In this document: piece by piece, positions 13,060 through 60,300 of the stretch
Layout of the letters: each line of letters opens with the position of its first letter
Numbering within the stretch: position 1 is the first letter of the stretch
From: Candidatus Omnitrophota bacterium
GTDB lineage: Bacteria > Omnitrophota > Gorgyraeia > Zapsychrales > Zapsychraceae
Assembly: GCA_050250375.1 (NCBI GenBank)
Contig: JBFWOS010000003.1
Coordinates: forward strand, 559,286 to 623,285
Direction of reading: 5' to 3'
DNA: 64,000 nt
Position numbers and translations under genes: made by a program
The notes under the pieces: generated by a model
What the model was told of the DNA's origin: nothing
Databases searched by the model: none
Seen by the model: only the letters and a program-made list of their open reading frames with translations

Positions 13060-13061
13060 CG

Positions 13062-33300: not shown

Positions 33301-36300
33301 CCTTGCCGCCAAACCCGAACAGGCCACCCATAGCCATCGCCATCATTGTGTGTGCATCACCGCTAGAATCTGTTCCACTGACTAACGCATATCCGAGAAC
33401 GACTGCCAGGATGATAAACGGCCCGAAGTGATCTCTGAAGACCACCCGTCCGATAAGATGGAACAACCGTTCAACTAGATAACCGACATACGCGGCCATG
33501 GCCGTCAAGAACCCGATCTTGTAAATGATTCTCCAGTCTGAGGTCACGTTGAAGTATTCAAAAATATCATCCCATGCCCCGTCAAAAATGATCTCTTTGA
33601 TTTCCGGAGAAACAGCTGCCCCAACAACCGCCGCCGTCAAAATAACGACAAACCAGACAAACCACCGCACCCACTGTTTGTAATCGCTGGCCGGGTTTCG
33701 GAAGATATTCTTCGGTCCTTCCACAAAGACCAGTGAATCATGGATCTTCTTGATGCGGATCGCGCGTTTGATCTTGCTGTATACGACCTTGACCGCGGCC
33801 AGACCGAGAAGACCAAGGACAACGGTTAATATGGAGACAGCACCTCTACCCTTAGTTCCCGATTCCCCAATCGTAACTTTAGTTTCTTTATAAGAACGGG
33901 TGCTGTCTCCAAGATCCTGAGGATCAAGTTGTGCAAGAACAGGGGCAATGCCATTAACTTCAGTCTCCGATTCCCCAATCGTAACTTTAGCTTCTCTTAA
34001 AGAACGGTCATTGCCCCTGTTGTTTATAGATTGGACAGCGTCATCACTTTCAGTCTCCGATTCCCCAATCGTAACTTCAGTTTCTGTTAATGAACGATGA
34101 ACGCTGTCCTCGATTGCTGTTTGGCCGCGGGCTTCATTCGTGGTCAGGATAACCAGCGCGAGAACGCCCAGGATAAACGGCATTAAATATCTCACGGCAC
34201 GCATGATGCGGTTTGCTGCCGGGACCGGTTTCGATTCCTTAATCATGATACCGGCGTCAACCAGAGATCGGGCGTGTTCAATCATGCCGCCGTTTCGTCT
34301 GGCGATAAAGTATTGTTTGATGTGTTCCAGCCCGCGTCCGGCGATATCATCAACGATGGCCGACATAAATCCGCTCCGGTTTCGGCTGCTGATGAAGTTG
34401 ACGACGCGTCTGGCGTTGACGAATGTCTCTTTATCCAGAAGGATCGCCGCGATACCCAGGGCGGCGGTTCCTTCAACCTTCATGCCGAAATGCTGCAGAA
34501 GGGCCATGGTGTAAATAGAATCCACATCCGCGACCCGGTAGGCGCCGTCGGCATATTCACGGAAGCGGTCAATCGCCGCCGGTTCAGGTGTGGCTGCGTT
34601 GCCGTCGGCCGGCATGTTGTTGGCGGCCGGGATTTGTTCCCTGATCGGAACGGCCGCGCCCTGCTGGATCGTGCGGAAACTCATGTCGACACGCGGTGTG
34701 GTGAACCCGTAGACATGCGCTTGCGGAATTCTGTTCTTGATTTGGAGTCCGGTTCCGGCAATCCATCCGGTTGATCCCATGGCCATGGTCACAACTAATT
34801 CACCTTCTTTTAGTTGTTCAATATTGATGGCCGGATCAGCGATGTAGCTTTGAACAACTTCTTCTCCGCCGGCGGCATAACCTGTACCAACCCATTCTTC
34901 AGCTGCTTTATCAAAATGACGGATCTGCATTTTGTGCCGCGGATCTTCATCCACCAGTTTCCAGACGACCTGTTCGGCTTCTTCATAACTTCCGTAATCG
35001 GCGTACAACCGTCCGCCGGCGTTTTTAATATTATTCTTTTTGTGTTCCAGGATATCGGTATCTGAATAAACGACTCCCTGCATGGTCTCAACCATTTCAA
35101 TAAATTGCGCCTGCGTTAAACCGCCCAGCGGCTCTCCGGTAAAGATGCCCGGATAATCCCGCTGCAATTCCAGGAACAGACGGACGAAATAAGCGTATCC
35201 GTTTTGCTGTAATTTTTCTTTGACCGCACGCACCGCGGTGACGGTGGCCAGGCCGTGGTTACCGGTAGAAACAGCAATGACTTCATACGGGATCTGTCCT
35301 TTGAGGACACGGACAAAGACTTCAACCGGCGCGCGGTTCTTGAATGATCCGGTACGGTATTGCCCCTGACCTTCGGCTTCGAAACCGTAAGATTCGTCTT
35401 TGAAGTCGATTCGGATCTCGCGGCCTTCTTCCCGTTCCAGAATGTCATTGACGAACCGGTTGATGCCTTCGATGGTTGTCAACGGCGTGGCTGACGGAAC
35501 AAGACCGAATTCACGCTGCAGCCGCAAGGCCGCGTGGACCTTTTCATCCGTAATGCCGCCGGCTTCTCTTCTGGCTTTAGCTTCGCGATGCGATAACGGC
35601 GTCAGAATAACCCGGTCAATACCGACCGGCAATCCTGTTGGGGTTGTTTGCGCGCGATGGATGCGACCTGACTTCTTCAATAACGCTTTAACGGAGAATA
35701 AAATTCTCTGGGCAGCAGCACGAACTCCAGTTCCCGATTCCCCAATCGTAACTTTAGCTTCATCTGTTAATGAACGGCTGCTGCCCATATCTGTTGTGTC
35801 GCGGTACGCGACAATAATCGGTGTTTCAAAATGTTGTAACGAAATTGTCTGCGGATAGCCTTGAATGGTTTCTCGCACTTCTACGGTGAACCCGAGGCTT
35901 CTTAGATGACTGATGAAATAATCTTGATATTCCGGTTTGTTTTCATCCTGATGAAGTCTGACAAACACGAGACTCTTAGACAATGGTCTGAAGTAACGAT
36001 CCAGATTCTCGACCAGGTCTTTGTTCGCGCTGCGGTTCGGCGCATTGATGCTCACAATATCAAATTGACGTCTGAACCGTTTATGTTCTGCGGCATCACT
36101 GATGCTGATATTTCTGTTTTCTGCGCGGCCTTTGCGGTCATGCTGACGTTTGTTTTGAATCAGATAAGAATGGTCAATGCCGGCGACTCGGGCGAATAAG
36201 CCTGTTTCTTTATTTTCCGCCACAATCCGGTCGGCGAATTCATTACGGGTACGGCCGGATCCCAGGTCAATCAACGATACCGGTTTTTGCGAACCAAAAT

Positions 36301-39300
36301 AATCCCGGATGATCGTATAGAATTCAGTTTCAGAGGCAGCGCGGTTGACTTCCGTTTCCGATTCCCCAATCGTAACTTTAGTTTTGTCTGTCGAAGATCG
36401 CGCGCTGCCTCTGATATCTTTCCATATGCGGATGAAAATCCATGTAAATGCGACGGCCGCCCCAATAATGATCAGGGCTAAGAACCTGGCCAGGAATGTT
36501 TCCACCGGACCGTCGTAAGACGAACCATACGCCGGAGCGGCCAGGCCTGCCGCTGCTGCAACCAACCCGGTTTTAACGAGAGTATTGGAGGCCATGCGTG
36601 TCACACCAGTTTCCGATTCCCCAATCGTAACTTTAGTTTCATCTGTTAATGAACGTACATGGCCTCCAAAATGAATTCGGGTGAAATGAACAGGGACGGC
36701 GTAATAACCTTCGGTTTCCGATTCCCCAATCGTAACTTTAGCTTCATTTGTTAAAGAAGTTACGCCGTCCCTATATTGGTCAAAGTGATTTAAGACAGTT
36801 CCCTGCGAATTGATCGGGGCAGCACGTGTCACATCAGTTTCCGATTCCCCAATCGTAACTTTATTCTTCTTCGCAAAAGAAACGGACACCGTTTCTTTTG
36901 CTTCGAAGGAATATTCCTGCCCTGCTCCGCCGTAGCGAAGACTGTTTAAGACAGGCTTCGCAGAGGCGAGCGAAGCAAAAATATTGGATTGATCCGCGCC
37001 GCGAAGCAGAATAGTTTCATCTGTTAATGAACGTGTGCCGTCCCGATATTGGTTGACCGCGGCCATGGTGCCGATGCTGATGACCGCGACCAGAGTTATA
37101 AATGCTGTCCGGCTGAAAACAGCGCGCTTGATCCATTGTTTGAATTGATAAAGCCGAGGATATGATTTTTTCTGATAAATGTTGATGTAAAGATCGATAT
37201 AGACTTCTTCGAACCTCTCCAGGCTGTCTTTAACGCTGTAGTGTTCCAGTCCGTATTCTTTTAACAATTCCAAAGTGATCGCCCGGGCGGATTCGGCCTG
37301 ATGGCCTTTCTGTTCATCTTCGTTGAATAGTTGTTTAAACAGTTCGAATGCCTTGGCCTGGTCTTCCATCGTGAAGATCTGACGGACAATCTTGCGCAAC
37401 AGGTTGTCGGCGGCTTCCTTGACGACCGGCTGGTTCTTTCGGGACATGTCGCGCTCGTACAGGTGGGTCAGCACATCGACGGATTTCTGATCGATCTGGC
37501 TGAGCCGGGCGAAGACTACTTCCCCGACAACGTTCGTCAACCCTTCGGCATCTTTTAATACCAGACGAACCACTTCATCTCTGATTTCATCATCGTAAGC
37601 CTTGAATTTGCGTTCAGATTCGTCTCTTCTTTGGTCAACCGCGATAATCGTTCCCAACAGCAGGATGATCCAGGCTGTATTGCGGTTATACGTTGTCAAC
37701 CCGCGCTGAATACTCAACAAATGTTCAAATGAATCTTCGATCAAATCTCTGGTGTCTCGATGTTCAATGTAATCCACATACAGCCACGGGATCAGTGAAC
37801 CGCCGGACATGGCCGCTTCTTTGTTATCCAGTGTCTGCAGAATTTCCCTGACGTCGGATCCTCGAATGACATAACTTTGATTTCTGGACACAAACCGTTC
37901 GATGGAATCTCTTGTTCTTAACAGGTAGACAAACACCGCTAACGAACCGTGCAGGGCGATTTCATCTTCCGGATGAAGGATGATTTCATCGATCTGCAGG
38001 ATGTTTTCCATGACCGTGCGGTCAAGCTGCTGCTCGAGGACATCCATAGCTTCCTGATATTCAGCTGTTTTTCCGATATAAAGCAGATGAATGATCAGGC
38101 CGCCGAGCGATTTCGCAAGGACTTGATGAAGCTGTTCGCTGTTTTGTTTGTAGGCACCGGCGATTCGGAACAGGTTATAGATCAATGTTCCATAGAATGG
38201 TTCTTCAGGAACCAGCATAACGCGCCAAATATCACGGTTTCCGGTGACCGGGTCCCTGGTGTCCAGAACACCCTCACGTAAGAACCGGGCGACGTCATCT
38301 TTAGTTGTATTCGGACTTTGCAGCAACAGCCGGTGGAACGGCGCGACTTCGAGGTTATGCTGCATAATAAATTCTTTGGTTTCATGAACACGGGCCAATA
38401 ATTCCGTTCCGCTGTCGTCGGTCATTTGCTTAAACATTTCAACCAGCTGTTCATCGGTATAAGCCAGATATTCAGCCGAAACAGGTCCGACAATCTGTTT
38501 AAACACGTCAATGAATGAATCCTTGTTTTCAGACTGTTGCGGATCGAGCCCAAGCAGGTTGAATAATTCTAAGCGTTCCTTCGAACTATAGGTGGCCACG
38601 TGGCTTCTGAATTCGAACAGCAATGATTCTCGGGCCTTTTGTTCATCCAGATAATCCTGGATCATCAGCGACCAGATACCGAATCGTACGGCCAGATAAA
38701 GCGTAACCTTCCAGCCGTCTTTTAACCGGACAGGGAAAGCGCCCTGACTTAGAGTATCCGATTCCCCAATCGTAACTTTAGTTTCTTCAAAAGAACGGGC
38801 GCTTTCCCTACCAGATTTATTCTCGAGTAATTTGTTTATGTTAATCACAATCATTGACTCACGGACATCAACGATATACTGACTTTGCGGTTCATTGACC
38901 AGTTTGACAAAATTATTTCTGCGGTTCGTGTTACCGAATAATTCATAGAACCGGGCGTACAGGAAGGCGTATGTATTGAGCGTATCCCGGGTGAATCTTA
39001 AAATCTTGGCTGATTCGATTCTGGATAGTTTTAAATGACCGATGTTTCCGGAATCAATGCCTGAATAACGCAGGCGGACCTGCTGGACGTCAAAATCATC
39101 GGCCAAATGATGAGTTTCAATCTTTGCCAGAAGCTCAGCGGCTTGTTTCTCAAATAAGCTGTCTTCTGTATGTGAACGGATCTCGGCGATAAATCGGGCC
39201 CGTATACCGTAATCCAGTTTCAGGACCTGCGTGGCCAGGGCTCTTGGCGTAATCAGCCAGCGGCGGATGCCTTTCAGGTCGCGTAGTGTTGATAACAGAT

Positions 39301-42300
39301 GAACAACCTCTACGTCAATCGCGTTATAGTTCCGTATATCGGTATATCGTGCAAAGAATTTGGTGATTCGTACAGCGGTATAAATCAATGCTGCGGCAGA
39401 AAGGACACCTGCCAGAACAGCTAACCAGAACCATGCGGTCGTTCCGGAAGCACCCATCAGGAACGGCGTTACGGCCAGGATGACGACAGCGCGCAAAATA
39501 CGGTCACGTCGTAAAGTTTTCGCCGCCGGAGGCGCGCGGGTTTCTTTCGTTGAGACCGTTTGGTTATGTTTCTTTCTGAGACTGAGGACCTGTTTGATCA
39601 ACACAACCGGAATGGTGACAATCACGGCTAACGCCGCCACGGCCAGCCACGGGCTGTGCTCAAATCCCGGTGTAGCGGACAACCCAAGAATCACGGCCAG
39701 GATGACGCTAAACGGTGATGTCATCAGTTTGGTTGACTCCGGCGCCTGCCAATCCCGGCTGGTGATCTTATCTTTGCGACGGATGGACATCAGTTTTTGT
39801 TCAAGGACATCCTGCAATTCTTTGCTTAAAGGTTTATCATCCTTAAGGAGAAGCAAGGTATCGTAAGAAACCTGTCCGATATCCGCATCCCCGATAACCT
39901 CTCCTGTCCCGGCGTGGACGTTGATGCCCAGTTGAGTAAGAACAGAACTCAATACATACAACCAACCAGAGAAGTTAACGGCGGAGATTTCAAGCAGTGT
40001 CCCTTCTTTGCCCTTGTATGTGGCCCCGGATAATTCGATCTTTGTCAGGATGTCCGTTTGCGGGACATTAAATGAGAGTTCAATATTCGCCTGACGTTCT
40101 TTAGTTTGTGTGGCGGTTTCACCCTCGGTGGCTGTTTCTCGTTTTTCTTGCAGGATATCTTCCGGCCGTACTTCTTCATTAATCATGCGTTCGATATCGC
40201 GTTTCATATCGGCCAATAAATCTTCCCAGGCCGTGCTGATGCCGGTGCGGTGTTCAACAAAGAAGTGGTCGATGACCAGACCGGAAGGTCCAAGTCCGAC
40301 TTTGTAGTTACGGCGGGCGAATCCATACGCCAGCAGCACGACAGAAATCTTGTTTAAAATACCCGGCCGGTCTTCATCCATCGGGTCAAACCGGATGAGG
40401 ATCTCTTCCGTCTTGCCTCTGACCGGCGAAGCACTGGACGGATTACTGACTGAAATGTTGATGCGGTCGTCGTGAGAACGGTCTTGCATGACCAAACGTC
40501 TGTCCTCTTCTACTTGTCTGGCCTGTGAGGCGCTCAGCGTTTGCACAACGTAATTCCTGTCACCGATGCGTTTCAGGTCAACATCGAAGACCGGATAGTA
40601 ATCTTTCAGACGCTGCGCGATACCCTGAGGCTGCAGAACGCTCATCTCGATCATGGTAAAGACCGTCAGCAGGGCCAGGCGGATCGGATCGTTTCCTATG
40701 ACTTCCTTGAAGAATTCGGCCATATCCGCCGGATTATCACCCTTACGGATGCGGGCGATCAATGCTTTTTGGTTTTCGATCAACCAGACGATCAGCCGTG
40801 TTTCGCGGCTGAACGGCAGCATGCCCATTCTGGCCAAAACGAAATACAATCGTCCGGAGTGGAACATTCCGTCAATACCGGCCACGATGTGGACCGGAAG
40901 GAACCGGCTCAGGCCGTTGATAATCCATTCCGGTGTGTGACCGTTGGTGTGCATCAACAGGGCCAGGCGCAAAGCCCGTCTCAGGTTATGACGGGTCAGA
41001 TAATCAATGCTTGGTTCCAGTTTGGCCTGCATGTCCGCAAAGACGGCCTGATCCATATCGTGGACCATTCTCGGTTCATGGAACATCAGCGCCTCACCGC
41101 GGACAAACGTTGCGACCGTGTAATGGTCTAACGTCAGATGATGCGGCGGATCAAGGTGACGGCGGTACATCAGTTCTCCGAAACCAAAAACAATCTTGGA
41201 CAGGATATTGTTGTTGGCCTTGTCCGCAAAATATCTTAATCTCCAGACGCCGGCGGTCAACGGCGCGTTGACTTTCATGTATTGGTGGACGAATCTGAAC
41301 CGCAGCAGCATCCATGTCCACCATCCGGCGGTTTCCATTTCGCGTTCGATTCGGTCGAAGATCCCGCCTCTTAACGCGGTCGGATAATTAACGGCAACGT
41401 TGGTCAATAAGTCGAACAATCGCGGCAGATAACTGCGGCGTTTCGGCTGTTGATAATCAATCGCCAGCGCGCGTTGGTTGTCGCGGTGCTGGAATCCGTC
41501 TTCCAGCATGAGATATGTTCCGGTTCTTCTGACAACCACAATGTCGTCCGGAAGGCTGGTGTCGATGGTTTCCGGTACGACCCTCAATTCATCGGCGCCT
41601 GACAGGATGAGCCTCAACCGTCTGAACGCGAACGTAAACAAGCGGTCTTGCGCCCTTCTTAAATCTTTCAGGAATTCCGGAATGATCTCTGCCGGTGTCC
41701 CGGTATAGCCCAGTTGGGCGGCGATCAGGGCGTATTGGTCAACCCTGACCCTGGTGCGGTTGGATTTGATGTTCATTTGCCCGACGACCGCGCGGACTTT
41801 CAGCAGCAGGATGTACGCGCGCCGGGCTTTTTCCAACAGGTCGCGGTCAAACACACCTTTATTCAACAGATAATTCCAAACCGCTGCATCCGGGATGAAT
41901 TCTTCAGAAGCCAAAGCATTGGTATCGGTGTGTTCGGCGATGAAGCCCGCCAATCCGATTGAATAGATTGTCTGCAGGTCTCTTAATGAACCGTTGCCTT
42001 CCTTCAGGTTAGGCTCTTTGGTATTCAAGCCTTCGCGGAAACCGTTCTTTTGGTATCGGATCTGCCATTCCAGACGTTTAAGCTTGGCAAAAACCAGCGG
42101 ATCAACATTGTAAGCCTGTTTCAGTCCGGCGAAGACTTCCATTCTCCAGCCGTTCCAGATTGAACGATCTCCGGCCACATAACGGGTCTCAAGGATAGAA
42201 CTCGCGATCTGGACCTGGGCGAGGTTTTCCGATTCCCAGCGGATGGTTGAAGCGTTCGGAACAAATTCAACCTGTTCATTGAATACTTCCGTAACCACCA

Positions 42301-45300
42301 TGCGGACGAACCGAAGTAATTTCAACTGGCGTTCAAATTCGGCCAATACGGCTTGTTTGTCCGCATCGGATTCATCGACAAACCGTTTGATCGCTTTAAA
42401 TTGATAATCAAAGTCATAAATGGCTTCGACCTTTTCCCGTTCCCCGGCCGGAACGAACTGCATGACTTTATCATGATTTTCTTCATACCCTTTCACTTCG
42501 ATTCTCAAGTCGAGGTCTGAACCCGGGACATATTCACGGCGGGCATAACTTCCGTGGGCCATGAAGGTCACATCCCCGTCATCGCCGAATCGTTCAACCG
42601 TATAACGGTTCAATTGAATGACGATATGGTCCAGCCGGCGGGTGGTCAGGTCAGTCTTAACCTGGATCGGCAGCCGCGCGTGGTCAACCCAGATATAGTT
42701 AAATTCATATTCCCATTGTTTCTTTAAAATCTGTGCTGTTTGTTTGATCGCCTCATTGTCATCGCCGATTGCACTTAAACGAATATCGAGCGTGGTTTTG
42801 ATTCTTTCCAACCGTTCGTTCAAACGCTCTTCCAATTCTTTGACCTGCGCGGCAACTTCTTCTTCGGTGAGATTAGACTGTTCGGATTCTTCGTCTTTCT
42901 TTTTACGGAACATGAACGGCCATAACATGGCGAGTACATACGGATTGTTGGTGGTGGAAGACATGACCGTTGACGGATCCGCGCCCATCAGATAAATGGT
43001 GACGATGGCCGCTAAGACAAACGCCATGATGATAAAACTGATAAAGCCGTTTTGTTTCAGCATTTTTGCCAACTTTTTAATGCGTGAATTTTGTTTTTTG
43101 TTGCTGCCTGCAAAGAAGTATTCATCCGTATCGATCTTTGCCTTGAGGTCGTTGTGTTCCTGTTTGGCCAGGTGGGCGATCACTAAACGGTAAATGATGA
43201 ACGACTGGATCAGATCATTCTTATCAAAGAAGTTTGTATTCAGAACGATTGTGTTTCGGTCAAAGTCGATGGCGAATAAATGTCCGTTTGAATAGATCGA
43301 TGAATCCGTCAAAATAAAGGTGATTTCGCGAGGCAGATCAAATTCCGGCGGTCCGCGCGTCATCAGATCCCCGATGACATCGTTGATTTTCGCCAGGAGG
43401 ATCTCTTCGCGTTGGCTGGCCGGTTCTGATGATGTTTTTTCGTAACGGTTTTCAACCAGCCTGACTTTAAATTCGACGCTCAGGTCTGCGACCACTTGAT
43501 CCATGGTTACGTCATCGGTTTTATGACCTTCTTCACCCTTAACGCCTCTCAGCCATTGTTTGACAAAGTCGAAGAACGATGTGAATACAATCACATTATG
43601 GTTGGCCTTTTCAATAATCTTGAATTCGAATCCAAACTTGTCCGCAAAGGCTTTATTTGTTTCAACAGGCGTGACCATGTCTTGCTGGCCGACAGTGACC
43701 AGGACTTTAATACCGTTTTGCCCGATATTTTCCGCCAAGGCAATTGATTCATCCGCGTCAATTTCCAGATGGCGGTATAACCACAATGTCTCAAATCGCT
43801 GACGGAAGCTGCGTTCAGCCACGTTGGCGTGTTCGATCAGTTTATTGTATAGGTATGAATTAACTCTTAGGAATTGGACCACTTTTCTGAATCCGAGTTC
43901 CCTGAAGAAGGCCTGCATACGGACCAGGGCTTTATTCGGCAGGATGTGAAGCATCATGACCCCCCATAAAATCGGACGGAACATGGAAATTTGTCTGTAC
44001 GGCAGTGACGCGAACACAACACTGTTGATATGGCTGATCGCATCGGAAAGAATGTTCTTGAACCGGAATGACTGCAGCGTGTAGCGGTTGGTCAAAAGCG
44101 CCAGCAGGATCCGTCCGCCGAACGAATGGGCCACGATATCCATTTTATGTGTCCTGACTGAACCGGTTGTTTCATAAACATTTAAATTCACTTGTTTAAG
44201 CAGGGATTTGATCTGCCGTTTCAGCCAGGAAGATTCCTCTTCTTCAACGATTTCAAATCCGTTTTGGGCAAAATGGTTGATGACCCAGGCCAGGAATACT
44301 GTTGACCGGGCGACAATGTGGTCAATCTCAAGAATATTTCTCAGGACAACTTTTTCCTGGATGGTTAATTCCTGACCGCCGATGCTTCCGGTTTCCAGCA
44401 GTCCGCGGATAATCTTGTCGGATCTCCAGTGCTGGATAATGACGATAGTGCGCTGCGGATACAGCCTCTTCAATTCTTCCATGTTAAACGTGAGCGTATC
44501 AACGACACCATGAAGGAACAGGATCGGGCTGCCGCCGGCCTTATGGACCTGGAAGGCGTACGGCACATCGATGGTGTTGTCTGAATATGAATTGTATTGT
44601 TCTTCCTGGGTTGGCACATCTTCCACATAAGTATCCGTATGATGCCGTCCGTTACCATTGCGTCTCAGTCGGGATAAGCGTGAACCGTTACCTTTATAAG
44701 CCTCGATGACTTTTGTCAGGGCTGCCCTGGCGCCGGCCGGTCCGTGTTCCGGCAAGACAATAACGTCTTGCGGCATGCCGGCGTAAATCTTCGGTCCGAC
44801 CATAACGCGGGTGGCTTTCGGCAGGGCCGCGAACATCGGATGATCCAGTTCGCTGTCTCCGATAACCAGAATGTCTTCTTCATTAATTCGAAGATGATCC
44901 AGCAGATCGCGTACCGCGCGTCCTTTATCGGCCCGGGATACGTGCAGAGCGACGGATGACACCAGAACGTTCAGGCTGCTGAACCTTTCGTCAGCGGCCA
45001 GACGGCGACGGATGCTATCGGCCAAATGTGTGCGGAATTCAACTGTTGTATTTTCCAGCCACAACTTCAGATCAAGGGTCTGTCCTTCGAACATGACACG
45101 GTCCAGAGGCATATCATCCGGCAGAGTTCTGAGCCGCTGTCTGGCCAGATTATATTCGTAGCCGATAATGCCCATAACTTCTTCGATTTCATCATCGGTA
45201 GAAGCCAGGATATCCAGATAAATCGGAATATCGTAATCGATCTGGCCTTGACGGTTGAACCGGTAACCAATTCCGCCGTTGGCGGTATACATATATTGCA

Positions 45301-48300: not shown

Positions 48301-51300
48301 AACCGCCGACGATAATATCGATATCCAGCGCTTTCATCCGGCCGGCGTACATATCATCCACCATATCGGCCAGGATATCGAGCTGCTTTTGTTCAACAAG
48401 GCGGGACACGACGCCCACCAGCAGACGATCGCTGCCAGGAGTCAGGTACCCGTGTTTGGTTACTTTATCTTTCGTGACTTCCTTCACGTCACGGCCTTCC
48501 GCGAGCATTTCCTGAAGATGCTGTTTGTTTTGTGCGCGGGCTTCAAGGACGGCATCAATACCCTGCTCGATGGAATAATTCTTGAAGAACACTTTGTTGG
48601 TTGACGGATCATTCAATCTGAAGTGAATACCGTTTAATATACCCTTGAACCGTTCGCCTAATGTCTTGAGCAATGTCAACCCGCTGAATAATGTGTCGAT
48701 GACTTCTTTCAGATAACCGCGGCTGACCGTATTCACGGCATTACCCAGGGCGCTGATCTTAGTGAATGTTTGCGGGACAATACCCATCATATTGATCCGG
48801 CTTCTGTGGACGACAAGCTCCCTGACGGCCGGAAACTCTTCTAATCCGAGTTCAGGATACAAGGCCTGCGGATAAGATCCCTGGTAACCGATGTTGTGGA
48901 TCGTAAACAGATTTCCGGTGCGTTCAAAATGTTCTTTATGGATCGTACGCATGTAGAGCGACACCAGGGCTGTATGGTGATCATGGGTGTGGACAATCGC
49001 CGGTTTCAACCCGATATGTTTCATTAACTCCAAAGAGCCCCGGGATAACAGGATTGATTCATAGAAGCCGGTGCGTTCGGTCTTATAGGCTGAATCAAAG
49101 AATTCCGTCGAGTCGGCATCCAGCATGTAGACCGTGATGCCTTCAACGGTCAATTTCTTAGCCGTCAGGACGACATTTTCGTTTTCCTTGAATGGTACTT
49201 CAAAGGCGAAACCTTCGACGTCTTCGGCCCCGGCATAAGCCGGATTTACGGCCAGTTGTTTGAAGTAAGGAATGATGACCACCAGATCGTGTCCGATTTC
49301 GGCCAGGGCTTTAGGCAGTTCGTACATAACATCTCCCTGTCCGCCCTTCTTGACCAGCGGCCCGAATTCCATGGCGACCAGAGCAACTGTGCCTTTGAAG
49401 TTTTGTTGAATGGTCACACGGCCGTTTCCGTAACTGACGTCTGCCCATTCGCGTGAACCGTCTTCGTTTTCAAGGACAAACGTGTATTCGAAATTACGTT
49501 CGACGATTACCTTAACGGTGTAGTGGGCGCGGGACTCGGTGTTTTCAATAAAGGTCACCGGATGGGTATAATCTTTCCATTCTCCGTCCATATTGGAATG
49601 AAGGATAACACGGCGGGTTCCCGTTTCATCTCTGCGGTTAGCGGCAACTTCCAGTGTAACTTCTTGCCCCACTTCAACCGTCCTGAAGGCATTCACAATC
49701 TGACCTCCGGTGGTTGACCTTAAGGCCGCGATGAATTCACGTGTCCCGCGGTACATGACAACACCCAGCGGCGGAACAGTAATTTCGATGGAGTCGGCAC
49801 GGCCGTTTGAGGCGACCGGCTGTGTATTGTGTTTGTCTCTGTCAACGACATCGCTGCCGCCGTACTTGACTGAATCACTGTTAAAGACCGGTTCCCAAAG
49901 GCCGGCAAACGGCACACCTACGCGGTAATCCTGATAAACAACCGGTGTAAAGTTGGCGACAACCAGAACGACTTCATTCGGGTTTTCACTCCTGCGGATA
50001 AAGCTGAGAACCCCGCGTTCCGCGTCGTCAAAGTTGATGGCTTCGAACCCTTCCCGGCTAAAATCAAAACGGTGCAGGTTGCGGTCGTTCTTGTAAAGCC
50101 GGTTGAGGTCGCGGACCAGGGTTTGAATGCCCTGGTGCAGCGGATACTCAAGCAGATGCCATTCGAGGTCACGGTCCGGATTCCATTCCGCGGTCTGGGC
50201 CAAATCAGCGCCCATAAACAATAACTTCTTGCCAGGTGTGGCGAACATCAGCGCGTACAACAGTCTCAAGTTGGCAAAACGCTGCCATTCATCGCCCGGC
50301 ATCTTGCCGATCAGCGAACCTTTACCATGGACGACTTCGTCATGGGCCAGGGCCAGCATGAACCGTTCCGTAAATGCGTACATGCTGTAGAACGTGATGT
50401 CGTTATGGTGGAATCGTCGGTGGATCGGTTGACGGCTGAAATACTTGAGCGTATCATTCATCCAGCCCATGGCCCACTTAATGTCAAATCCAAGGGCCTT
50501 ATCACCGGACTCTATCGGCGCGGTTACACCCGGCCAATCAGTTGATTCTTCGGCGATGGTTATGATTTCCGGATATACCTGATGAGCGGTGGTGTTGAGT
50601 TGACGGATGAATCGTACCGCCTCAAGGTTTTCATTTCCGCCGTAAATGTTCGGAATCCATTGTCCTGGTTGCCGGCCGTAATTCAGATACAGCATGGATG
50701 ATACGGCATCCACGCGGATACCATCGATGTGATATTCACGCATCCAGTACATGGCGTTGCTCAACAGGAAGCTGATCACTTCGTGACGGCCGTAATTAAA
50801 GATCAACGTACCCCAATCCGGATGGTCGCTTTGGATCGGCAATTCATGAGAATAGAGTTCTGTACCGTCGAAGCGGACCAGTCCGTGCAGGTCGCGCGGG
50901 AAGTGGGCCGGGACCCAGTCGAAGAAGACACCGAAGCCGGCCTGATGCAGCTGATCGATCAAATACTTCAGATCTTCCGGCGTCCCGTATCGTGATGTCG
51001 GCGAGAAGTAATTGCTGACTTGGTAACCCCAGGACGGATAATAACTGTGCTCATAAGGAGGCAAGAACTGGACGTGGGTAAATTCCGTTTCTTGTAAATG
51101 CTTGATCAGTTCAGGAGCGAGTTCGCGATAGGTTAACGGGGCCCTTTCGCCTTCTTCTGTCGTCTTGTTCCTGAACGACCCTAAATGGAGTTCAAAAACG
51201 CTGATCGGAGCTGAACTGGCGTTTGACTGAGCCCTTCGTTCCATCCACTTGCGGTCATGCCATCGGTATTTACCTGTATCCGAGACGATGGATGATGTCC

Positions 51301-54300
51301 GGTCCGCATTGTCGCCGGTCGGGAATTCGCTTGCGAAGGCATACGGATCGGCCTTGATCCTGACCACTTTGTCCCGCCCGATAATGCGGAATTTGTAAAG
51401 GGCGCCTTCGGTGACCCGCGGCACATATATCGACCAGACGCCGGTTGATGGATCAAATCTCATGCGGCCGCCTCTGTGCTTCCAGCCGTTGAAATCACCG
51501 ATGACAGAAACGGAGCGCGCATTCGGCGCCCAGACGGCGAAGTAGGTCCCGTAGACGGTATGTTCCGTCTTGACCAGGTGAGCGCCGAGCTTATCATAAA
51601 TCTGGCTATGCGCGCCTTGCTGAACGAATAACAGTTTATCGAGGTCTCCGAACTGCAGGCCTTGCATAATCTTTAGAACGCGGGCTGATTCTTCATCCAG
51701 CTGAATGTGACCTTGTTCGACGGCCGCAGATATTTCGCTGACGGCTTCCGGACGGCTGGCGTACGTCAGAAGGCTGTCCTGAATATAATTATTCAGATAA
51801 TGTTCTTCACGGGCGCTGTTTTGTTCATGCGTCAGATCAAATTCAGCCAGGGCGCCGACTTCATGGATCAAACTGGCCGCCATCTGATTGACGGTCAGGT
51901 ATCCGAGTTCTTCATATTCCGCCGCGTTGGACAGGACGATGTATTCCTCACCGTCATAAACGTAAACAGCAGCGAGGATTCCCGTCACCGGACCGGCGCG
52001 AAGGAGTCCGGCACGGGCCATGGTTCTCAGGCGCTGGGCCATGGCTTTATAACCGTTTGCGCGCAGGTATCGATGGGCGGCGATTACGGCCGGATGATTG
52101 ATGGCCACCATTTCCAGCCGTTTGATATCTTTATCTCGTGATTGTTCAGTGGCGGTTTTAAGGAATGCGAACGCCTCTGGTGTCAACGCTTCAGCCGTTA
52201 CTCTCCATGTCCAGTTGTTTTCAACCGTACCGGGTTTATTCATCCGGGCTTCTTCATCCAGGCCGAGAATATCTTGTAACGGAACGATGGCGAGACGTGA
52301 TTTTGAATCGACAGCCATCTGGACAAAACGTTCATGAATATCTTCTTCTATATTTTCTTCCGCGAGATGTTCCGTTATTTCACGTTTCTGTTCAGCAGTA
52401 GCTTCGCGGGTATACCAGCCTACGGTGGTATTATTATCATGAGTACCGGTGTAGACCACAGAATTTTCAACGTGATTGTCCGGATGGTAACGATGATCTC
52501 CTTCAAACCCGAACTGAAGAACGTTCATGCCTGACAATTCAAATTGTTTAAGCAGGACCGTCACGTCCTCTGTAATAATCCCCAGGTCTTCAGCGATGAA
52601 CGGCAGCGATGGGAATTGTTCGCTCAGATGGCTGAAAAAGTCGGCGCCCGGCCCAGGCACCCATTCGCCAGCCAGGGCGTTTTCGGCCTTGGCCGGGATG
52701 GACCAGTAGCCGGCAAATCCGCGGAAATGATCCAGGCGGACCAGGTCGAAATAATTCAACTGCTGCTGCAGACGCATGGTCCACCAGTCGTAGTTATTTT
52801 CCTTGAGCGCATCCCAAAGGTAAACCGGGTTGCCCCAAACCTGGCCAGTGGCACTGAAGGCATCTGCCGGCGCGCCGGCGACATGAAGCGGCTGGTTGTC
52901 TTTGCCCAGATCGAAATATTCTCGGTGGGCCCAGACATCGGCGCTGTCATGGCTGACATAGATCGGCGCGTCTCCGATAAACCGGACGCCTTTCTCAGCG
53001 GCGTACGCTTTCAAGGCCCGGAATTGTTTGTAGAGCATAAACTGCACAAACATAATCTCTTCAACAGCGGCCTTATGTTGTTCCCGGTAATTGGCCAGGA
53101 TCGTTTCGTTTCTGTCTCTTAATGAATCGGTCCATTCATACCAGGCTTGCCCGTTGTTATTTTCTTTCAGGACCATGAACAACGCGTAATCTTGTAACCA
53201 ATAATTATTGTTGAACATAAAGAGTTCAAATTCACTGTTGCCGTTCTTGGCCTTGAAGCGTTCATAGGCCAGTTTGAGCAGGCCTCCCTTGAAGGCAGCA
53301 ACGGTGTTGTAATCGACCTTGGTTTCATCCGTTGTTTCAAAGGCGGCCGCTTCTTCGGCGGTCAGCAATCCTTCGGCGACCAATTTCTCGATGCTGATCA
53401 TCAGAGGATTCAAGGCGAAGGCTGAATCGCTCAGGTACGGTGAATTTAATGTTGAAACCGCGGTCGGCGTCAACGGCAGCATCTGCCAGTAACGCTGCTT
53501 GGCTCCGGCGAGAAGATCGACAAACGCGTAAGCAGCCGGTCCGAAATCACCGATGCCGTGGCGTGAAGGCAATGAGGTTACGGACAGCAGGACCCCGCTT
53601 TCTCTCGGCTGGATGATCCGTTCGACTTCGAAACGGACTGATTGTTGATCCGGCATTTCTTCTCCCGACACCGGCCGCGCAGGATCTTTGGCGGCGACGG
53701 TTTCGAATGTTCTGACCAGATATTCGAACGGACGAAGCGTGATTGTTTCTTGAGCGGTAAACGCGCTTTGCTGGCCGTTCTCAACATTGGTCCACACGCC
53801 CTGGGCATTACTTTGGCCAGAATTCCACTCTTCCGCCCAGAGGTGAAGGGTGAATTGACGGGTTTCACCGGAATAGTTGGCGATGACCAGCGCCTGTTCC
53901 TGGGCGAGGCTGCGTTGATAGGCGATCACGCCCTTCGGCAAGTCTCCGGTATGAACCGCATTTGTGTCACCTTTGCGCCATAACGCTGATTTCGTTTTAT
54001 TTAACCAGGTATCATAAAATTCCTTCTGTTCTTGATCATACGGCTCGGCTTCATGGTTTTGGGTAACATAGGTTGCGTTCGGTTTTTCGTTTGAACGGCC
54101 GCGGCGCTGGCCGGCGTTGATCATCACCATACCCGGCATGGTCATCATCAGGACAGCGGCTGCTCTTTGTTGTTCACGGTTCAATATCCTGGCGACGCGC
54201 TCGGACGGATCATCATGGTTTTCCAAGAAATGGACGGTGCGCGTTAAATATTCATTTGATGTGCGTTGCCGGTTGGTCAGGTAATCTCTTAATTCTTCAA

Positions 54301-57300
54301 CCGGGAAACGCTGTTCGACCAGGATGTCGAACACATGTTTGTCGTAGGTAAAATGAATGCCCAATCGCTGCAATGCCCCTTCGTGCTGGGCATAACCTTC
54401 GCCGATCAGGATGGCGTTGTTGTATGCACCTAAGAATTCATGCAGGAATCCAGGGATAAATTCTTCTGTTAGGATCTCATTTCCGCCTAACGGTTGTAAA
54501 TCACGGTTGATATGTTCTTTTAACAGCAGATGCGCCATATCGATTCTGGCACCGCCGCCGTTGGTGATATCCAGGATGTATTGCATTTTCGCGGCCATCT
54601 GGGCTCTTAATGCCGGGTTCGACCAGTCTAACTGGGCGGTATCGATCCATGAACCGGAGAACCCTTCTTGTCCGTGCAGAATGGCTTTCGGCCCATTTGC
54701 TGTTTGGACCATAAAGTAACGATTCGTGTATTTCTTGACATCTTCGCGGTTCTTCAAATATTCACTCAGGGTCGTGACCGGTTCATTCAATTGAGCCGCG
54801 TCGCGTGAAATGAACCATTCCGGATGGGCGATGGTCCATGGTGAATCGGCGGCCATGTGGTTCGGAACAAAGTCGACGACCACTTTCAGGCCGGCGGCGT
54901 TGGCGCGTTTGACAAATTTGCGGAACGATCTCTCCGTACCAAATTCTTCGTCGATCGTGTAATCTTTAATGCTGTACGCTGACCCGACCCGTTTTGGATC
55001 CCACATCTTGTTGAAGTCTGTTGTAAATTGTCCTCTCTTCCAGATACCCATCATCCAGATCACATTAAATCCGTCGGCTCTCATCGTTCTGAGGGTTTTA
55101 TTGTCAATTTCATCGAACCGGCGGCCTTTTTCGCGGGTATGCCATAAGAATAAATGGGCGCCTTGTGTTCTGATTTCTTCATCGAGATCAGACCCTGGTT
55201 GCGTAGCGGCCGGGAATTCCCCGCTAACCTTTCGTTCAGCCAGTTCAAAAATTCTGCGGTTATAGTCTGCGTGGACTTTGGCCGCCGCGATAATCGCCTC
55301 TTCCTTGGCCAGCCAGGCGATTTGCGCATAATCCATATCCGGCAATTGCCGTCTCAATGTTTCCATCGCCCGTTGCAGTGTCTGCGCATAAACCTTATCG
55401 ATATCAACAGCCAGCTGGAATAAGATCATTTGTTGTTCGACAGATGGTACAACCCACTTTCTCAGGCTCGGCACATAAACCCGTTTGTGTTTGGCCACAA
55501 ACAAGTTTGGCGGTGTGCGTTTGAAATGAACGGTGCGTTCCGCTTCTTCATCGATCGGGGCGACATTGATCGCGTGGAATTTAACGGCGGTGTAATCGGC
55601 ATTGACCAATCCCGCGCTGTAGATGACAGATGGTGGTGCGTTGATCTGGTTGAGTTTACCGGATGCGGTCTGATCAACGATCACGTAGAGATTATGTTGA
55701 CGCTGCAATCCTGAGGCCGGCACCTTCGGCGTCACATCACCTTCAAGCGCGGCGGCCATAATACCAGCCTTCTTCTCGCCGTTGGCCATGAAGAATGTGT
55801 TGCGGGCTTCAAAGATATCGGCCAAGCCCATGGTATAGGCGTATGGAACCCGTCGGATGTCTGCGTAGTCACTGATGTTGGAATCAATCGTGCTTTGGGT
55901 CAAGCGGATTTGTCTTATTCTTGAGCTGAATTTATTATCGGCTGAAGGTTCATTGAAGGCCAAATGTCCGTTAGCACCGATGCCTAACATCACGATGTCC
56001 GCTCCGCCCATCTGTCTCAACGTTTGCGTATATCGTCTCAGATAAACCGGAAGAATGAAGGCTGTGTAGACCGGGCTTAAGATGTATTTGGTCACAATAT
56101 ACGGGATAGATTTATATTGGTACGGATCATATTTCACATAATCTGCGACCAGATGGATATTTTCTTGCGGGATCGCGACTCTGGAGAACAGGTTCTCGTT
56201 CAAGAAATAAGCGAATGACGCTTGGTGATCCCTGGTGAGACCTCTGTATTCATCCAGATGGAACGCGTTGATGCGTGACCATTCAATTCCTTCTATCCTG
56301 GCCAGTTCGTGCAGGAATTGTTTCATCGTGTTGCCGGTGGCAAAGATAATATTGATCGTTTCTTTAACCTTTAATAATTCTTTTATCTTGGCCGCGACTT
56401 GTCCGGCGGCGCCAGGGGCGAATTGGTCAGGAGCGTACACACTTACGTTATTCGTCTTCGCGGTTTGTTCTCCGGCCATTTGTTCTTTATCCGCATGGCG
56501 AACGGCTTTGAATGCGGCTTTGGCCAGCCAGACAAACGGACCGACGAAACCGATGAAGACCAGATACCATTTATTTCTTCTTAATTGGGCATCTTTAATG
56601 AAGAACCCTTTCTTGTTCACGGCCGATGAGTAGAAGATGTTGAAGAATTGAGTAGAAATACCGTCCAAAGCCACTGCAACCGCAGATAACGCTGGATGTT
56701 GAATCATTAAGCCGCGCAGGATCGAATAGAAGCGGGTCATCCAGAACGCTTCAAATTGTTTTTCGTGGGCCTTAAGCGCTTCTTCTCTTAATTGTTCAAC
56801 ATTGCCACGGATCAGTTCAACCAGCTTGCTATAACCAAACGATCTTAAGCGAACCATCGCCCCAATGCCGACAATCTTCAGGGCAGAGATGAAGGCTGTT
56901 TCTAAATCAGCTGGCTGGTCACCAAACAGACCCGGCATCACTTGGCCGGCCGCCCAGACAATGATAGTAATAGCCAAAGTACCAAGTGCGACGAAACGGG
57001 TTGTCATAAAGAAATTCCTGATTTTGAATGTCTTGAAGAAATTGACCGTGCGGGCTTCCACCATACTTCCAACGACATAGGTCAGGCCGAGGAAGGCGCT
57101 GATCGACAAGATCAGATATCCGAGCATCACACCTTTTGGCGCGATCACGGTGAAGTAGGCCAAACTCAAGAGGCCCATCGCGAGGCCTAACGGGAAGGCG
57201 AGCACGACTTGTTTCTTGATGATGCCGTGGCCACTGATCCACTGTCCGGTGAGGTCGGTGGCGGCCATAAAGATACCGAAGACGATGATATTGGCCACCG

Positions 57301-60300
57301 GAACGGCCACCACGCTGGTCAACAACGCGAACAGATATCCGTAGGTCAACAAGGCCAGGCCGGAGATCGCCGCCACGCTGATCAACGCCTTCACCAGGAC
57401 GCCGTTTCTCGGACGGGAAACTGGCCGTTCGTTCGTTGTTTTACGGACCGGCTCATCCGGCATCATGGCCAGCGGGGCCAATCCGTTCTCAATGACACCG
57501 GCGCGGCCGATGAACAGCGGTTCGATGAACCTGAATGAATCGGCCGGAACGATTTTGTTAACAGCCAGATGCTCCAGGAACAGCGCGGCGTTGAATACAT
57601 GCATGGTCGGTTCGCCGCTTAGATTGGATACTTGGTCGGCCGGGATCGCTTCGCGCATCTTCTCGATTTCCTGATCGGTATCGATAAATATGCGATGGCG
57701 CCGTCCGCGGGCGATCTCATAGGTGATCCAGGCCGGATCAGCCACGGCGCTGTAAACCTTAGGCTGTTTCAGGCCGTTCAATTCTTCTTTCTTAAGGATC
57801 AGGTAAGCGATATCAAATGAATAACGTAATAATTTTTGTTTGTCTTCGTTGCTAAAGCTTGACTTCAACACGTTTTGTTCGACCCTCTTGTTCAACCGTT
57901 TTAATTCTTTACGGTTAAGATCTCTGTCTTCCTTGATGAAGCTCAAAATTTGAGCCGGAACAACCCAGGCAAATCCGACTTCCGGAACAAAATTCCATTT
58001 AAACGCGGTCTTGACCGGAAGTTTGTAGGCAAAATGGTAGAACAACAGGATCGGTGAACGGATCAACCCGACCACAAACGATGAAACAAGATATGAAATA
58101 ACTGCGGCTGCCGCTGTAAAGAAGATGTTTCCGCCGGATAAGCTGAAATAGACGTAAGCCGTTGATGTTGAAACGCCCAGGATCTTGACCGTTTCGGTCA
58201 CGACTTTTGAGGCCAACAATGTATAGAACATGGCCCAGTAGCCGTTGATTTGTTTTTGGGTCAGACGGCCGCTCGCCAGGGCGCGGTGTGAAGCGAATAT
58301 CAGCAGTTTACGCAGGCTGTTGACTTTTACGGTCACGGACTTCTGGGCTGCCCGGCTGCCGGCGCGGGCCATCAGGAACATACCCCATACGGCCAGGAAC
58401 AGGACGAATTCAGCGATCCCCTGTCCGAATTTGTTTAAGGTGGAGGCAACGCCGCGAACTTCAGTTTCCGATTCCCCAATCGTTTTAACTTTAGTTTCAT
58501 GTGTTAATGAACGGGCGCTGCCTCCAACAGGTTGTATTTCTGAAATTATTTCTTGAGAGTCTACAGGGGTGATGCCGACAACTTCGGTTTCCGATTCCCC
58601 AATCGTTTTAACTTTAGTTTCATTTGTTAATGAACGGGCATCACCCCTGTTAGATTTTGTGGAGACAGCACCTTCAACTTTTGCTCCCGATTCCCCAATC
58701 GTAACTTTAGTTTCTGTTAATGAACGGGTGCTGTCTCCAATATGTTGTGTTCCTGTTTGAACTTCTGGTGAAATTACAGGGGTGATGCCGGCATCTTCAG
58801 TTTTCGATTCCCCAATCGTTTTAACTTTAGTTTCATTTGTTAATGAACGGGCATCACCCCTGTTAGATTTTGCGGAGACAGCACCCTGGTCTTCAGTTTC
58901 CGATTCCCCAATCGTAACTTTAGTTTCTGTGAACGAACGACGGGCGCTGTCTCCGACATGAGCTGCATCTCCTTGGAGATACATATCGGTCAATATTCTT
59001 AATTGGTCTGATGTTAATTGCGGATAGTTTGGTTCAATGTCGGCCTGAGGATTGACGCTGAGTCTTTCGGCCGTGAGAGCTTTTTGTCTGTCCTGGGCGG
59101 CGATTTGTGCGTTGATTTGTTCTGACACATCGCGGCCTTCTTCTTCCAGGCGGATCATATCGACGAAGAATGGAATCATGATGACTGGGTCATAGGCTTC
59201 CCAGCTGCCGTTGTTTTCACCGGTACGGCTGTATCTGAATCCGACATGGATATGGTCTTCAATCGGCCGGCCGTTTAAGCGGTCTGCGGCATTACCGGTG
59301 ACGCCTGAATGACCAACGACTTGGCCGAGTTCGACCTGTTCTTGCTGTTTGACATCGGATTTTGTTAAATGACTGAACTCGACGCGGATCCAGATACCGG
59401 CGACTTTGCGGTCAACAAAGACGACCAGCCCGTCTCTGCTTGTCTCGACTTTAAGGATTTGACCTTCCCAAGGCGTTCTGACCGGGGTATTGCGCGGCGT
59501 CAAGAAATCAACCCCACGATGATAATCGCTGTTTAATCTGAACGCGCCGAAATAATTGTACGGACGGATCAACCGTTTGATGACATCTTCAGGTTTTTCC
59601 ACCGCTTGAACGTCGGTTGCATCCATATTCGCCTGCTCAACGGTGTTAACTTGACCGACGGCCCGAAGGGAAAGAACGAGCAGAACGATAAACAACACGG
59701 CCGCGAGTATCACAGAGACCAGGCGTCTTGTCGGTGTTCCGGCTTTTCGGGCTGTTTGTTCCGCGGCGAACAGTTCAGTGACGGTGCGGTCAATCGGACG
59801 GTTATAGTCAAGCGCGCCAAGATTGATCACGATAAACAGTGTTTGATATTTTTTACCCTGATGTTCTTCGTCAATCGTAATGAATCGGTAAGCGTCCCGG
59901 CCTTCTTTGGCTAAAAGATCAAGCACTCTGGTCTGGAATTCCATGCCGCGGGAAGACACATTTCGATTAATGACGGTGTCGATCCCTTTGTTAAACAACC
60001 ACTGCAGCGTTATGCGGTAGGCTTCAACGGAATATTGTTCACGGATCAATTTTGATGAGCTGGTGGAAACGACGGCCGGTTTGCTCTTGCCCCTGAAGAA
60101 CACCCCGATATTCAAGTCGCCGGTTGTCTGGTTTTCACGATCACGTAAATCAAGCAGGATATGTGTCTCTTCCCGTGAGGTGCCGCGGACGTTGAGTCGG
60201 GCGATCTTGCCATCGAGGACGGTTCCGGCGAACATTTCTTCATAAACGGTGTCGGATTTTTGCTGATCGGTCAGGTCTAGATCGACCAATACGACCAGGC

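Follow-up and report, generated by a model that had tools for sequence, protein, structure and literature searches.

An in-frame repeat with a predicted hairpin fold in a giant gene of a Candidatus Omnitrophota bacterium

The window analyzed here, a stretch of 64,000 nucleotides (nt) from a Candidatus Omnitrophota bacterium (assembly GCA_050250375.1, contig JBFWOS010000003.1, positions 559,286 to 623,285), contains a minus-strand open reading frame (ORF) at 21362..63976 that encodes 14,204 amino acids (aa) inside the window and is still open at the window edge; its true start probably lies upstream of that edge. By Pfam, the product of this giant ORF is a multi-enzyme fusion that includes an M23 peptidase, a glucosamine-6-phosphate isomerase/6-phosphogluconolactonase (6PGL) module (window aa 2516-2779, nt ~55640-56430), an alpha-amylase, a GH77 4-alpha-glucanotransferase, CBM48/GlgB-like, GT5/GT1 starch synthase, HAD, alpha/beta hydrolase and GlnD-like nucleotidyltransferase modules and a pyridoxal phosphate (PLP)-dependent enzyme, PALP, and a Kyte-Doolittle scan predicts ~24 transmembrane (TM) helices in it. 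Our subject is a short element that recurs within this ORF and whose translation includes the peptide TIGES, continued in some copies as TIGESETE. TIGES occurs 14 times in the giant protein, always on the minus strand (window 33829-58958), at aa 1688, 1720, 1759, 1791 and 1832 (array A), 8402 (a singleton), 9041, 9082 and 9117 (array B), 9202 and 9410 (singletons) and 9969, 9999 and 10035 (array C).

What is conserved among these copies is the nucleic acid rather than the peptide. In the window there are 14 exact matches to the 15-mer ACGATTGGGGAATCG, all of them on the minus strand, and every further match has at least three mismatches, which argues that the repetition of the motif is not due to chance. 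The segment AAAGTT(AAA)ACGATTGGGGAATCGG is the same in 14/14 window copies, every synonymous position included, and the residues that follow GES are free to vary (ETE, KTE, GAK, DTL or GTG). Further, a core of ~55 nt, CGUUCAUUAACA(nAU)GAAACUAAAGUU(nnn)ACGAUUGGGGAAUCGGAAACUGAAG, is essentially invariant across the 40 copies that we found in five Omnitrophota genomes (see below), with core columns 90-100% identical in the pooled alignment. Because the coding sequence of the flanking orthologous blocks is saturated at its four-fold degenerate sites (34-37% identity), the invariance of the core at synonymous sites places the conservation at the nucleotide level.

The copies also have the signature of a conserved fold. 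Their flanks differ among copies yet are reverse-complementary within a copy (GGAGACAGC...GCTGTCTCC, GGTGATGCC...GGCATCACC, GGGACGGCGTAA...TTACGCCGTCCC), and 13 of the 14 window copies are predicted to form a long outer stem around the core, with a minimum free energy (MFE) of -29 to -39 kcal/mol; the folding z-scores of these copies against dinucleotide shuffles range from -4.4 to -5.6. RNAalifold, run on a MAFFT alignment of the window copies, gave a 13-bp outer helix and an inner hairpin, CGAUU-GGGG-AAUCG. In that alignment compensatory double changes were found at 12/13 outer pairs, 96% of cells were paired compared with 28-48% when the 3' partners were slid, and the covariation score of the outer stem was reached by 0/500 shuffles. 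When all 40 copies were pooled, compensatory changes were found at 13/13 outer pairs and 94.7% of cells were paired compared with 28-41% in the slid controls. G-U pairs outnumber A-C mismatches in the helices (24 vs 6), which indicates that it is the sense (mRNA) strand that folds.

Fold and peptide can be told apart directly in four copies, three in the related locus L003 and one in L002, in which the inner hairpin is kept but is read in another frame. These copies have a 1- or 4-nt indel before the hairpin, compensated after it, and encode KVNDWGIGN or KVINGWGIGK compared with the usual KVTIGESE; thus, nucleotide conservation is separable from peptide conservation. Overall, we are highly confident that each TIGESETE motif is the in-frame translation of a structured nucleic-acid element of about 88 nt (~86-95). 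The peptide itself, with 3.4 K+R vs 4.7 D+E per element, is net acidic and is probably a disordered loop or linker. With regard to reading frame, the invariant 5' core (e.g. window 58480-58510) has UAA stops in both of the other sense frames (CAU-UAA and AAC-UAA), and therefore only a single sense frame of the core is open.

The window copies, scored in bits with a covariance model (CM R1) built from them, and the TM helices around them are given below in window coordinates, all on the minus strand. Array A comprises copies 1 (58870..58958; stem type GGAGACAGC, 89.1 bits, MFE -39.1 kcal/mol), 2 (58774..58865; stem type GGGGTGATGCC, a 3-nt insert before the hairpin, 97.7 bits), 3 (58657..58742; 94 bits), 4 (58561..58652; 96.7 bits) and 5 (58438..58529; 97.2 bits, z = -5.58). 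Upstream, the helix at aa 1413-1446 (in->out; codons 59639..59740) opens a predicted extracytoplasmic loop that contains the M23 peptidase and the array; downstream, the 3' arm of copy 5 extends into the codons just ahead of the helix at aa 1850-1872 (out->in; codons 58361..58429), which is followed by the basic flank RAGSRAAQK. Array A has been expanded by duplication of a 213-nt two-element unit (58502-58927; units 86% identical). Copy 6 (38728..38813; 84.7 bits) is a singleton in a non-membrane linker, with no TM helix downstream. Array B starts directly after the helix at aa 8952-8976 (in->out; codons 37049..37123) with copy 7 (36815..37045), which is split: its 5' arm and 5' core (37045-37012) are separated from its 3' core and 3' arm (36863-36815) by an insertion of ~130 nt. 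The insertion has a hairpin of its own at 36866-36908 (20 bp, 85% complementary, 3-nt loop), and another copy with a large insertion, placed after the hairpin, is found at L005 101-228. Copies 8 (36688..36776; 95.6 bits) and 9 (36583..36671; 94.8 bits) complete array B ahead of the helix at aa 9156-9186 (out->in; codons 36419..36511), which is followed by RIWKDIR. Singleton copy 10 (36328..36416; 96.2 bits) comes directly after this helix on the cytoplasmic side, and singleton copy 11 (35704..35792; 94.9 bits) is in a non-membrane linker ahead of the PALP module. Array C, immediately downstream of the helix at aa 9924-9949 (in->out; codons 34130..34207), comprises copies 12 (34027..34115; 76.6 bits), 13 (33937..34022; 92.7 bits) and 14 (33829..33914; 92.9 bits, z = -5.38), and the 3' arm of copy 14, GGTGCTGTCTCC, is translated as G-A-V-S and overlaps the first residues of the helix at aa 10043-10069 (out->in; codons 33770..33850), which is followed by SKIKRAIRIKK. 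Copies 3 and 14 have 87% identity over 84 nt at a distance of 25 kb, which points to ectopic conversion or duplication.

An earlier, sequence-only reading of this DNA had quoted copies 5 and 14, and both sequences are exact as it gave them. It had placed the motifs between 33857 and 58500, where copies are indeed present, and copies 1-4 (58561-58958) lie past that end. The order that it described, motif, then TM helix, then basic tail, is found in arrays A, B and C and recurs in four related genomes, but not at copies 6, 10 and 11; and, of the modules that it saw bracketed by the motif, the PLP enzyme is confirmed as PALP, but the "methyltransferase-like" one between copies 10 and 11 has no Pfam support. 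A different repeat family occupies the C-terminal ~2,300 aa of the giant ORF (window 21362-28300, minus strand), in which about ten tandem protein-level repeats follow one another with a period of 690-760 nt (230-250 aa) and a nucleotide identity of 60-90%; they have no Pfam match, are separate from the TIGES elements and look like an ordinary domain array.

In the scans made, the element was found in giant ORFs only. An exact-core scan of the GTDB set, with one genome for each of 185,579 species, matched two metagenome-assembled genomes (MAGs), on a single contig in each and within stop-free ORFs. One is labelled Candidatus Omnitrophota and the other was counted as Omnitrophota by homology to this giant gene; both are species other than that of the window, with flanking coding DNA ~67% and protein 42-53% identical. 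When the array peptide was searched exhaustively with HMMER, one true relative (P0001), which led to two further Omnitrophica MAG contigs, was obtained, together with a leucine-rich repeat protein with "SIGESAF" that we rejected as a false positive; the same peptide had no match in a word-indexed protein database. In the five genomes, a CM search found 40 copies, as singletons or as tandem arrays of 3-7, in reading frames that are wholly stop-free and in the sense orientation in 40/40 cases. As read from the consensus, one antisense frame of the core is open too, yet there is no antisense copy among the 40. No copy was found in the window's 21 kb of housekeeping genes or in 20 kb of adjoining genome (L037, just left of the window, from the Logan assembly of SRR27751815), including the first 6.4 kb of a second long ORF. 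Viral contigs gave 0 matches to the core, and a scan of JGI metagenomes with a strict core pattern also gave 0 matches. A looser pattern gave 30 single matches in the JGI data, which we rejected as chance matches; the only one that the CM passed, L025 2457-2524, is an unrelated intergenic REP-like palindrome that has the 15-mer CGATTGGGGAATCGG in common by chance, which shows the core to be diagnostic only in combination with the rest of the model.

Array A is present at the orthologous position in L003, with 7 copies compared with 5 in the window. The same two stem types alternate in both arrays, and the changes between species are compensated; further, an unfiltered CM scan revealed no decayed relics of the element in the window. 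We conclude that every copy is under purifying selection for both fold and core sequence.

At a larger scale, module order in the giant genes is fluid, and the elements come and go and coincide with rearrangement boundaries. In the related locus L004, aa 697-1543 are collinear with window aa 6155-7008, and this block is flanked by an array on one side and by a singleton on the other. Upstream of the block, a cassette of TM helix, three-copy array and TM helix in L004 corresponds to a plain cytosolic linker in the window; downstream, a TM hairpin is common to both, and its loop is an element in L004 and 15 ordinary residues in the window. The homology between L003 and the window starts exactly at array A. 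The glucosamine-6-phosphate isomerase/6PGL module is missing from the collinear site in L003, and in L005 and L006 it stands directly after an array, before the TM cluster that precedes the module in the window.

The elements are non-randomly placed relative to TM helices. A helix starts within 30 aa of the last copy at 10/13 arrays and singletons from the five genomes, often overlapping the 3' arm, compared with 6% of random positions in the window protein; the binomial probability is of the order of 1e-9, which overstates the significance because the loci are not all independent. Further, six arrays begin no more than 11 aa after the end of a TM helix. The N-flank of the first helix (TM1) is basic, the loop is net acidic and the C-flank of the second helix (TM2) is basic (3-6 K+R), and this positive-inside pattern places the arrays in extracytoplasmic loops, between in->out and out->in helices, which supports the second idea of the sequence-only reading, that each cassette re-inserts the chain into the membrane. 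Consistent with an extracytoplasmic placement, array A shares its loop with the M23 module, a peptidoglycan hydrolase. A single-sequence AlphaFold model of aa 9905-10135, of low confidence (mean pLDDT 52), consists of a helix, a coil of ~80 aa and two helices, and the coil (pLDDT mostly <50) is array C. When a first loop was defined as the loop that follows a non-membrane stretch of at least 150 aa, elements were present in 7/17 first loops compared with 1/33 later loops (Fisher p = 0.0012). In addition, Shine-Dalgarno (SD)-like windows (<= -8 kcal/mol with the anti-SD sequence) make up 1.7% of element positions and 0.2% of the remaining ORF, a difference of about eight-fold.

These results hint that the expression of giant genes is managed in a way that has not been described. 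The explanation that we favor, at a probability of roughly 40%, is that the element is a new cis-acting mRNA element that is translated as a passive disordered loop and that delays or organizes translation before TM2. Fluman et al. 2014 (PMC4359368) reported programmed pauses in E. coli at codons -5 to +1 of TM2, only where the N terminus of TM2 is extracellular, and described long TM1-TM2 loops as another route to delaying TM2; the pause or tether, which is purely an inference, would be an RNA-structure version of this delay. The element would act in cis, on the mRNA that carries it. Wherever a membrane hairpin comes after a long cytosolic stretch, the ribosome would need to re-engage the translocon. 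One or more very stable structures within the codons of the first loop, the last of them reaching the first codons of the out->in TM helix, may reduce the speed of the ribosome or retain the mRNA immediately ahead of the synthesis of TM2, and each copy would also make the first extracytoplasmic loop ~30 aa longer. The invariant core may form a compact tertiary fold that resists unwinding, or it may be the binding site of a putative factor. In a wider and more tentative form, there would be a dedicated and hitherto undescribed class of translated structured-RNA modules in the first loop of each membrane hairpin of giant Omnitrophota genes; the module, perhaps with a specific bound factor, would programme the timing of the ribosome-mRNA complex or its tethering to the membrane, and one polypeptide of 14,000 to >100,000 aa could in this way be threaded into the membrane again and again, with the peptide motif as a shadow of the RNA.

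Several points weigh against this explanation. The TM helices on which it leans were called by a Kyte-Doolittle window only, and 3/13 loci (copies 6, 10 and 11) have no TM helix downstream. Ten of the 17 first loops have no element, and the enrichment in first loops could reflect tolerance, given that isolated two-helix anchors have unconstrained loops. The window's own TM hairpin at aa 6972-7030 functions without an element, although its orthologue in L004 has one. Ribosomes routinely unwind 13-bp stems, and SD-like pausing in ribosome-profiling data has been disputed in the later literature. A plain speed bump does not require an invariant core of ~55 nt, and therefore a partner or a tertiary fold has to be postulated; no partner of the core was found. 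Finally, the known carriers of the element are just five genomes, all from one lineage.

[quoted passage not shown] Fold and core would then serve propagation, as single-stranded DNA on the lagging-strand template or as RNA, and copies would survive only where ~30 extra hydrophilic residues are harmless, namely in linkers and in the loops of two-helix anchors. Consistent with this, two sites without an element in the window have one in L004, as a TM-array-TM cassette and as a loop element, copy number at the orthologous array differs (5 vs 7), the distant copies 3 and 14 are 87% identical, copy 7 is split by its ~130-nt insertion, the peptide is dispensable, and in-frame translated palindromic repeats are documented (PMC10969869). 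However, in the scans made the copies are confined to one gene per genome, they are uniformly in the sense orientation although one antisense frame of the core is open, and the window holds no decayed relics. Further, orthologous arrays keep the invariant core across saturated synonymous divergence while changes in their stems are compensated, and an arrangement of variable terminal arms around a fixed centre is the reverse of the terminal inverted repeat layout of MITEs. The window contains no transposase, RAYT or integrase. Direct duplications of the target-site type were not seen beside the stems, although divergence makes their detection weak.

The stability and the position of the hairpins raise another possibility, which we regard as improbable: the elements could punctuate the mRNA, as RNase III/E-type processing sites or 3'-exonuclease barriers of the REP or Correia kind, and so divide or stabilize segments of a transcript that needs tens of minutes to be made and read. 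Tandem and very stable hairpins (-29 to -39 kcal/mol) at module boundaries would suit such a role, West-Roberts et al. leave open the cutting of giant transcripts into smaller ones, and there are precedents in Correia elements, which RNase III cleaves, and in ERIC elements, which influence decay (PMC10969869). On the other hand, the ORF crosses every copy without stop or start signals and the indels are always compensated in frame, which indicates that translation through the element is under selection, and cuts at the elements would yield non-stop mRNAs. Classical RNase III substrates are longer than a 13-bp stem. Terminator- or promoter-like signals are not above background, and the placement in first loops ahead of TM2 would be left unexplained.

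The coincidence of elements with rearrangement boundaries could instead mean that they are DNA recombination junctions, a reading that we find very doubtful, in which portable in-frame homology or site-specific sites, with sense-strand hairpins formed during replication, would allow modules of giant genes to be inserted, deleted and reshuffled with the frame intact. In favor of it, blocks of homology between genomes start and stop at arrays (L003 at array A; L004 aa 697-1543), module content and order differ among genomes, as for the glucosamine-isomerase module, all copies are direct repeats in one frame, and the inner AGTTACGATT-GGGG-AATCGGAAACT is an imperfect inverted repeat like the core sites of recombinases. 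But an element is missing from most of the 14,204-aa protein's domain boundaries, there is no recombinase or integrase nearby in the window, and the layout is the reverse of that of the integron attC site. Moreover, the covariation and the excess of G-U pairs fit RNA at least equally well, and shuffling at repeats may be a consequence of the elements rather than their selected function.

The sequence-only reading had proposed that TIGESETE is instead an internal peptide sorting or processing cassette, recognized by a protease of the sortase, exosortase or rhombosortase kind that would split the giant protein into membrane-anchored units; this is highly improbable. The tripartite layout of motif, helix and basic tail is real and present in five genomes, authors of the giant-gene papers suspect proteolytic processing and a CPBP/Rce1-like intramembrane protease gene lies at 11593-13131, but selection acts on nucleotides rather than residues, the stems covary, four copies encode another peptide over the conserved hairpin, the residues after GES vary, three copies have no TM helix, and the motif is internal rather than C-terminal. 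When the three array cassettes and copy 6 were scanned against NCBIfam for LPXTG, PEP-CTERM, PGF-CTERM and GlyGly-CTERM signals (E<=10), only spurious sub-threshold matches were obtained, and no sortase, exosortase, archaeosortase or rhombosortase was found in the window's 21 kb outside the giant gene or in L037. Nothing in the sequence calls for cleavage close to the motif, though some may take place.

We also considered and rejected a number of known identities. At Rfam gathering thresholds the window has a single match, to a tRNA-Pro, and a permissive Rfam scan of array A gave one chance match (E=1.7) on the opposite strand. For hammerhead, hairpin and pistol ribozymes, the K-turn and the C/D-box, the essential core nucleotides are absent (as judged against their consensus sequences), and Rfam gave nothing. 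Intrinsic terminators and promoters were rejected because there are no terminator-like sites at the elements and counts are at shuffle level. By direct reading, there is no conserved start codon or SD spacing that would mark an internal translation start after the arrays, and no slippery heptamer is present upstream of the stems, as a -1 frameshift stimulator would need. A CRISPR-like array was rejected, given that the variable segments on either side of the conserved core are complementary to each other, and so was an origin of the stems in inverted duplication of the target site at insertion, since stems of different copies and genomes are related and include G-U pairs and the occasional mismatch.

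The other genes of the window are ordinary and include MutS, MutL, RsmB/F, MarR, pilin-like, secretin, amidase, racemase, QueC/QueE-like, RNase PH, Ham1 and DUF748 genes, in addition to the tRNA with a UGG (Pro) anticodon at 282-355 on the plus strand (59.9 bits), which is the match at Rfam gathering level mentioned above. The CPBP/Rce1-like intramembrane protease, which has a TPR region, is encoded on the minus strand ~8 kb from the 3' end of the giant gene and near the secretin and an amidase; it is the sole protease-like processing candidate in the window, and nothing ties it to the motif. The second very long ORF, at L037 14222-20600, encodes >3,029 aa and runs off the locus; its product combines PEPCK, malate synthase, aldolase and isocitrate lyase, and the organism therefore has at least two multi-enzyme mega-ORFs.

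Giant genes of 85,804 aa and 147,155 aa have been reported in Omnitrophota, and according to West-Roberts et al. it is not known whether the transcript or the protein works as one piece or is cut. A covarying RNA module that is non-randomly placed relative to TM helices offers the first sequence-level handle on this processing question. The covariance model can now be applied to all complete Omnitrophota genomes, and the copies provide precise sites for end-mapping, ribosome profiling and mutagenesis. If the preferred explanation of a pause or tether is true, mRNA-programmed control of membrane insertion would extend from short SD-like sequences to dedicated folded RNA. The element also carries a warning for annotation, in that a sharply conserved and repeated peptide motif may be a by-product of selection on nucleic acid; synonymous sites and flank complementarity tell selection on nucleic acid from selection on peptide.

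Among known systems, the C-terminal sorting signals have the same order of motif, hydrophobic helix and basic cluster; unlike them, this motif is internal (aa 1688-10035), repeated and conserved in its nucleotides, and has no HMM match. Like integron attC sites, the element is a direct repeat that bounds modules and could fold as a single-stranded hairpin whose structure is conserved over the sequence of its arms. However, attC sites have conserved R''/R' and L''/L' boxes at the base of the stem, a variable centre and a dedicated integrase, IntI, and are not translated in frame, whereas here the stem base is variable, the centre is invariant and the window has no integrase. REP/BIME, Correia and ERIC sequences are likewise repeated and stable mRNA stem-loops and possible nuclease targets or decay barriers, and REP sequences stabilize transcripts. 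They lie outside genes or at gene ends, in either orientation, and have conserved arms, whereas this element is intragenic and translated and has an invariant internal core.

The closest resemblances are divided between two systems. RPEs and in-frame MITE-like repeats are also short palindromes (about 90-150 bp) that are inserted in frame, translated and tolerated in non-critical parts of proteins (PMC10969869), but RPEs are scattered over many unrelated genes and intergenic DNA, whereas here, in the scans made, each genome had copies in a single giant gene and only in the sense orientation. The element further differs from RPEs and MITEs in its tandem arrays, its compensated variable arms around an invariant centre, its orthologous retention and its tie to TM boundaries. 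The pre-TM2 pauses of E. coli (PMC4359368) are similar in position, shortly ahead of the out->in TM2 of N-in proteins or replaced by a longer first loop, in their proposed purpose of delaying TM2 until targeting is done, and in their enrichment in SD-like sequence; they were attributed to short SD-like hexamers, whereas here there is a conserved 88-nt folded module and the event would recur internally, after hundreds of cytosolic residues. A full-text literature search for the motif gave nothing, and the two main papers on Omnitrophota giant genes mention neither hairpins nor RNA structure. Measured against all of these systems, we class the element either as an in-frame palindromic repeat that is translated or as a structured RNA within coding sequence, and we put at roughly one in three the odds that it represents a cis-acting module of a truly new kind, one that serves in building giant membrane-threaded proteins.

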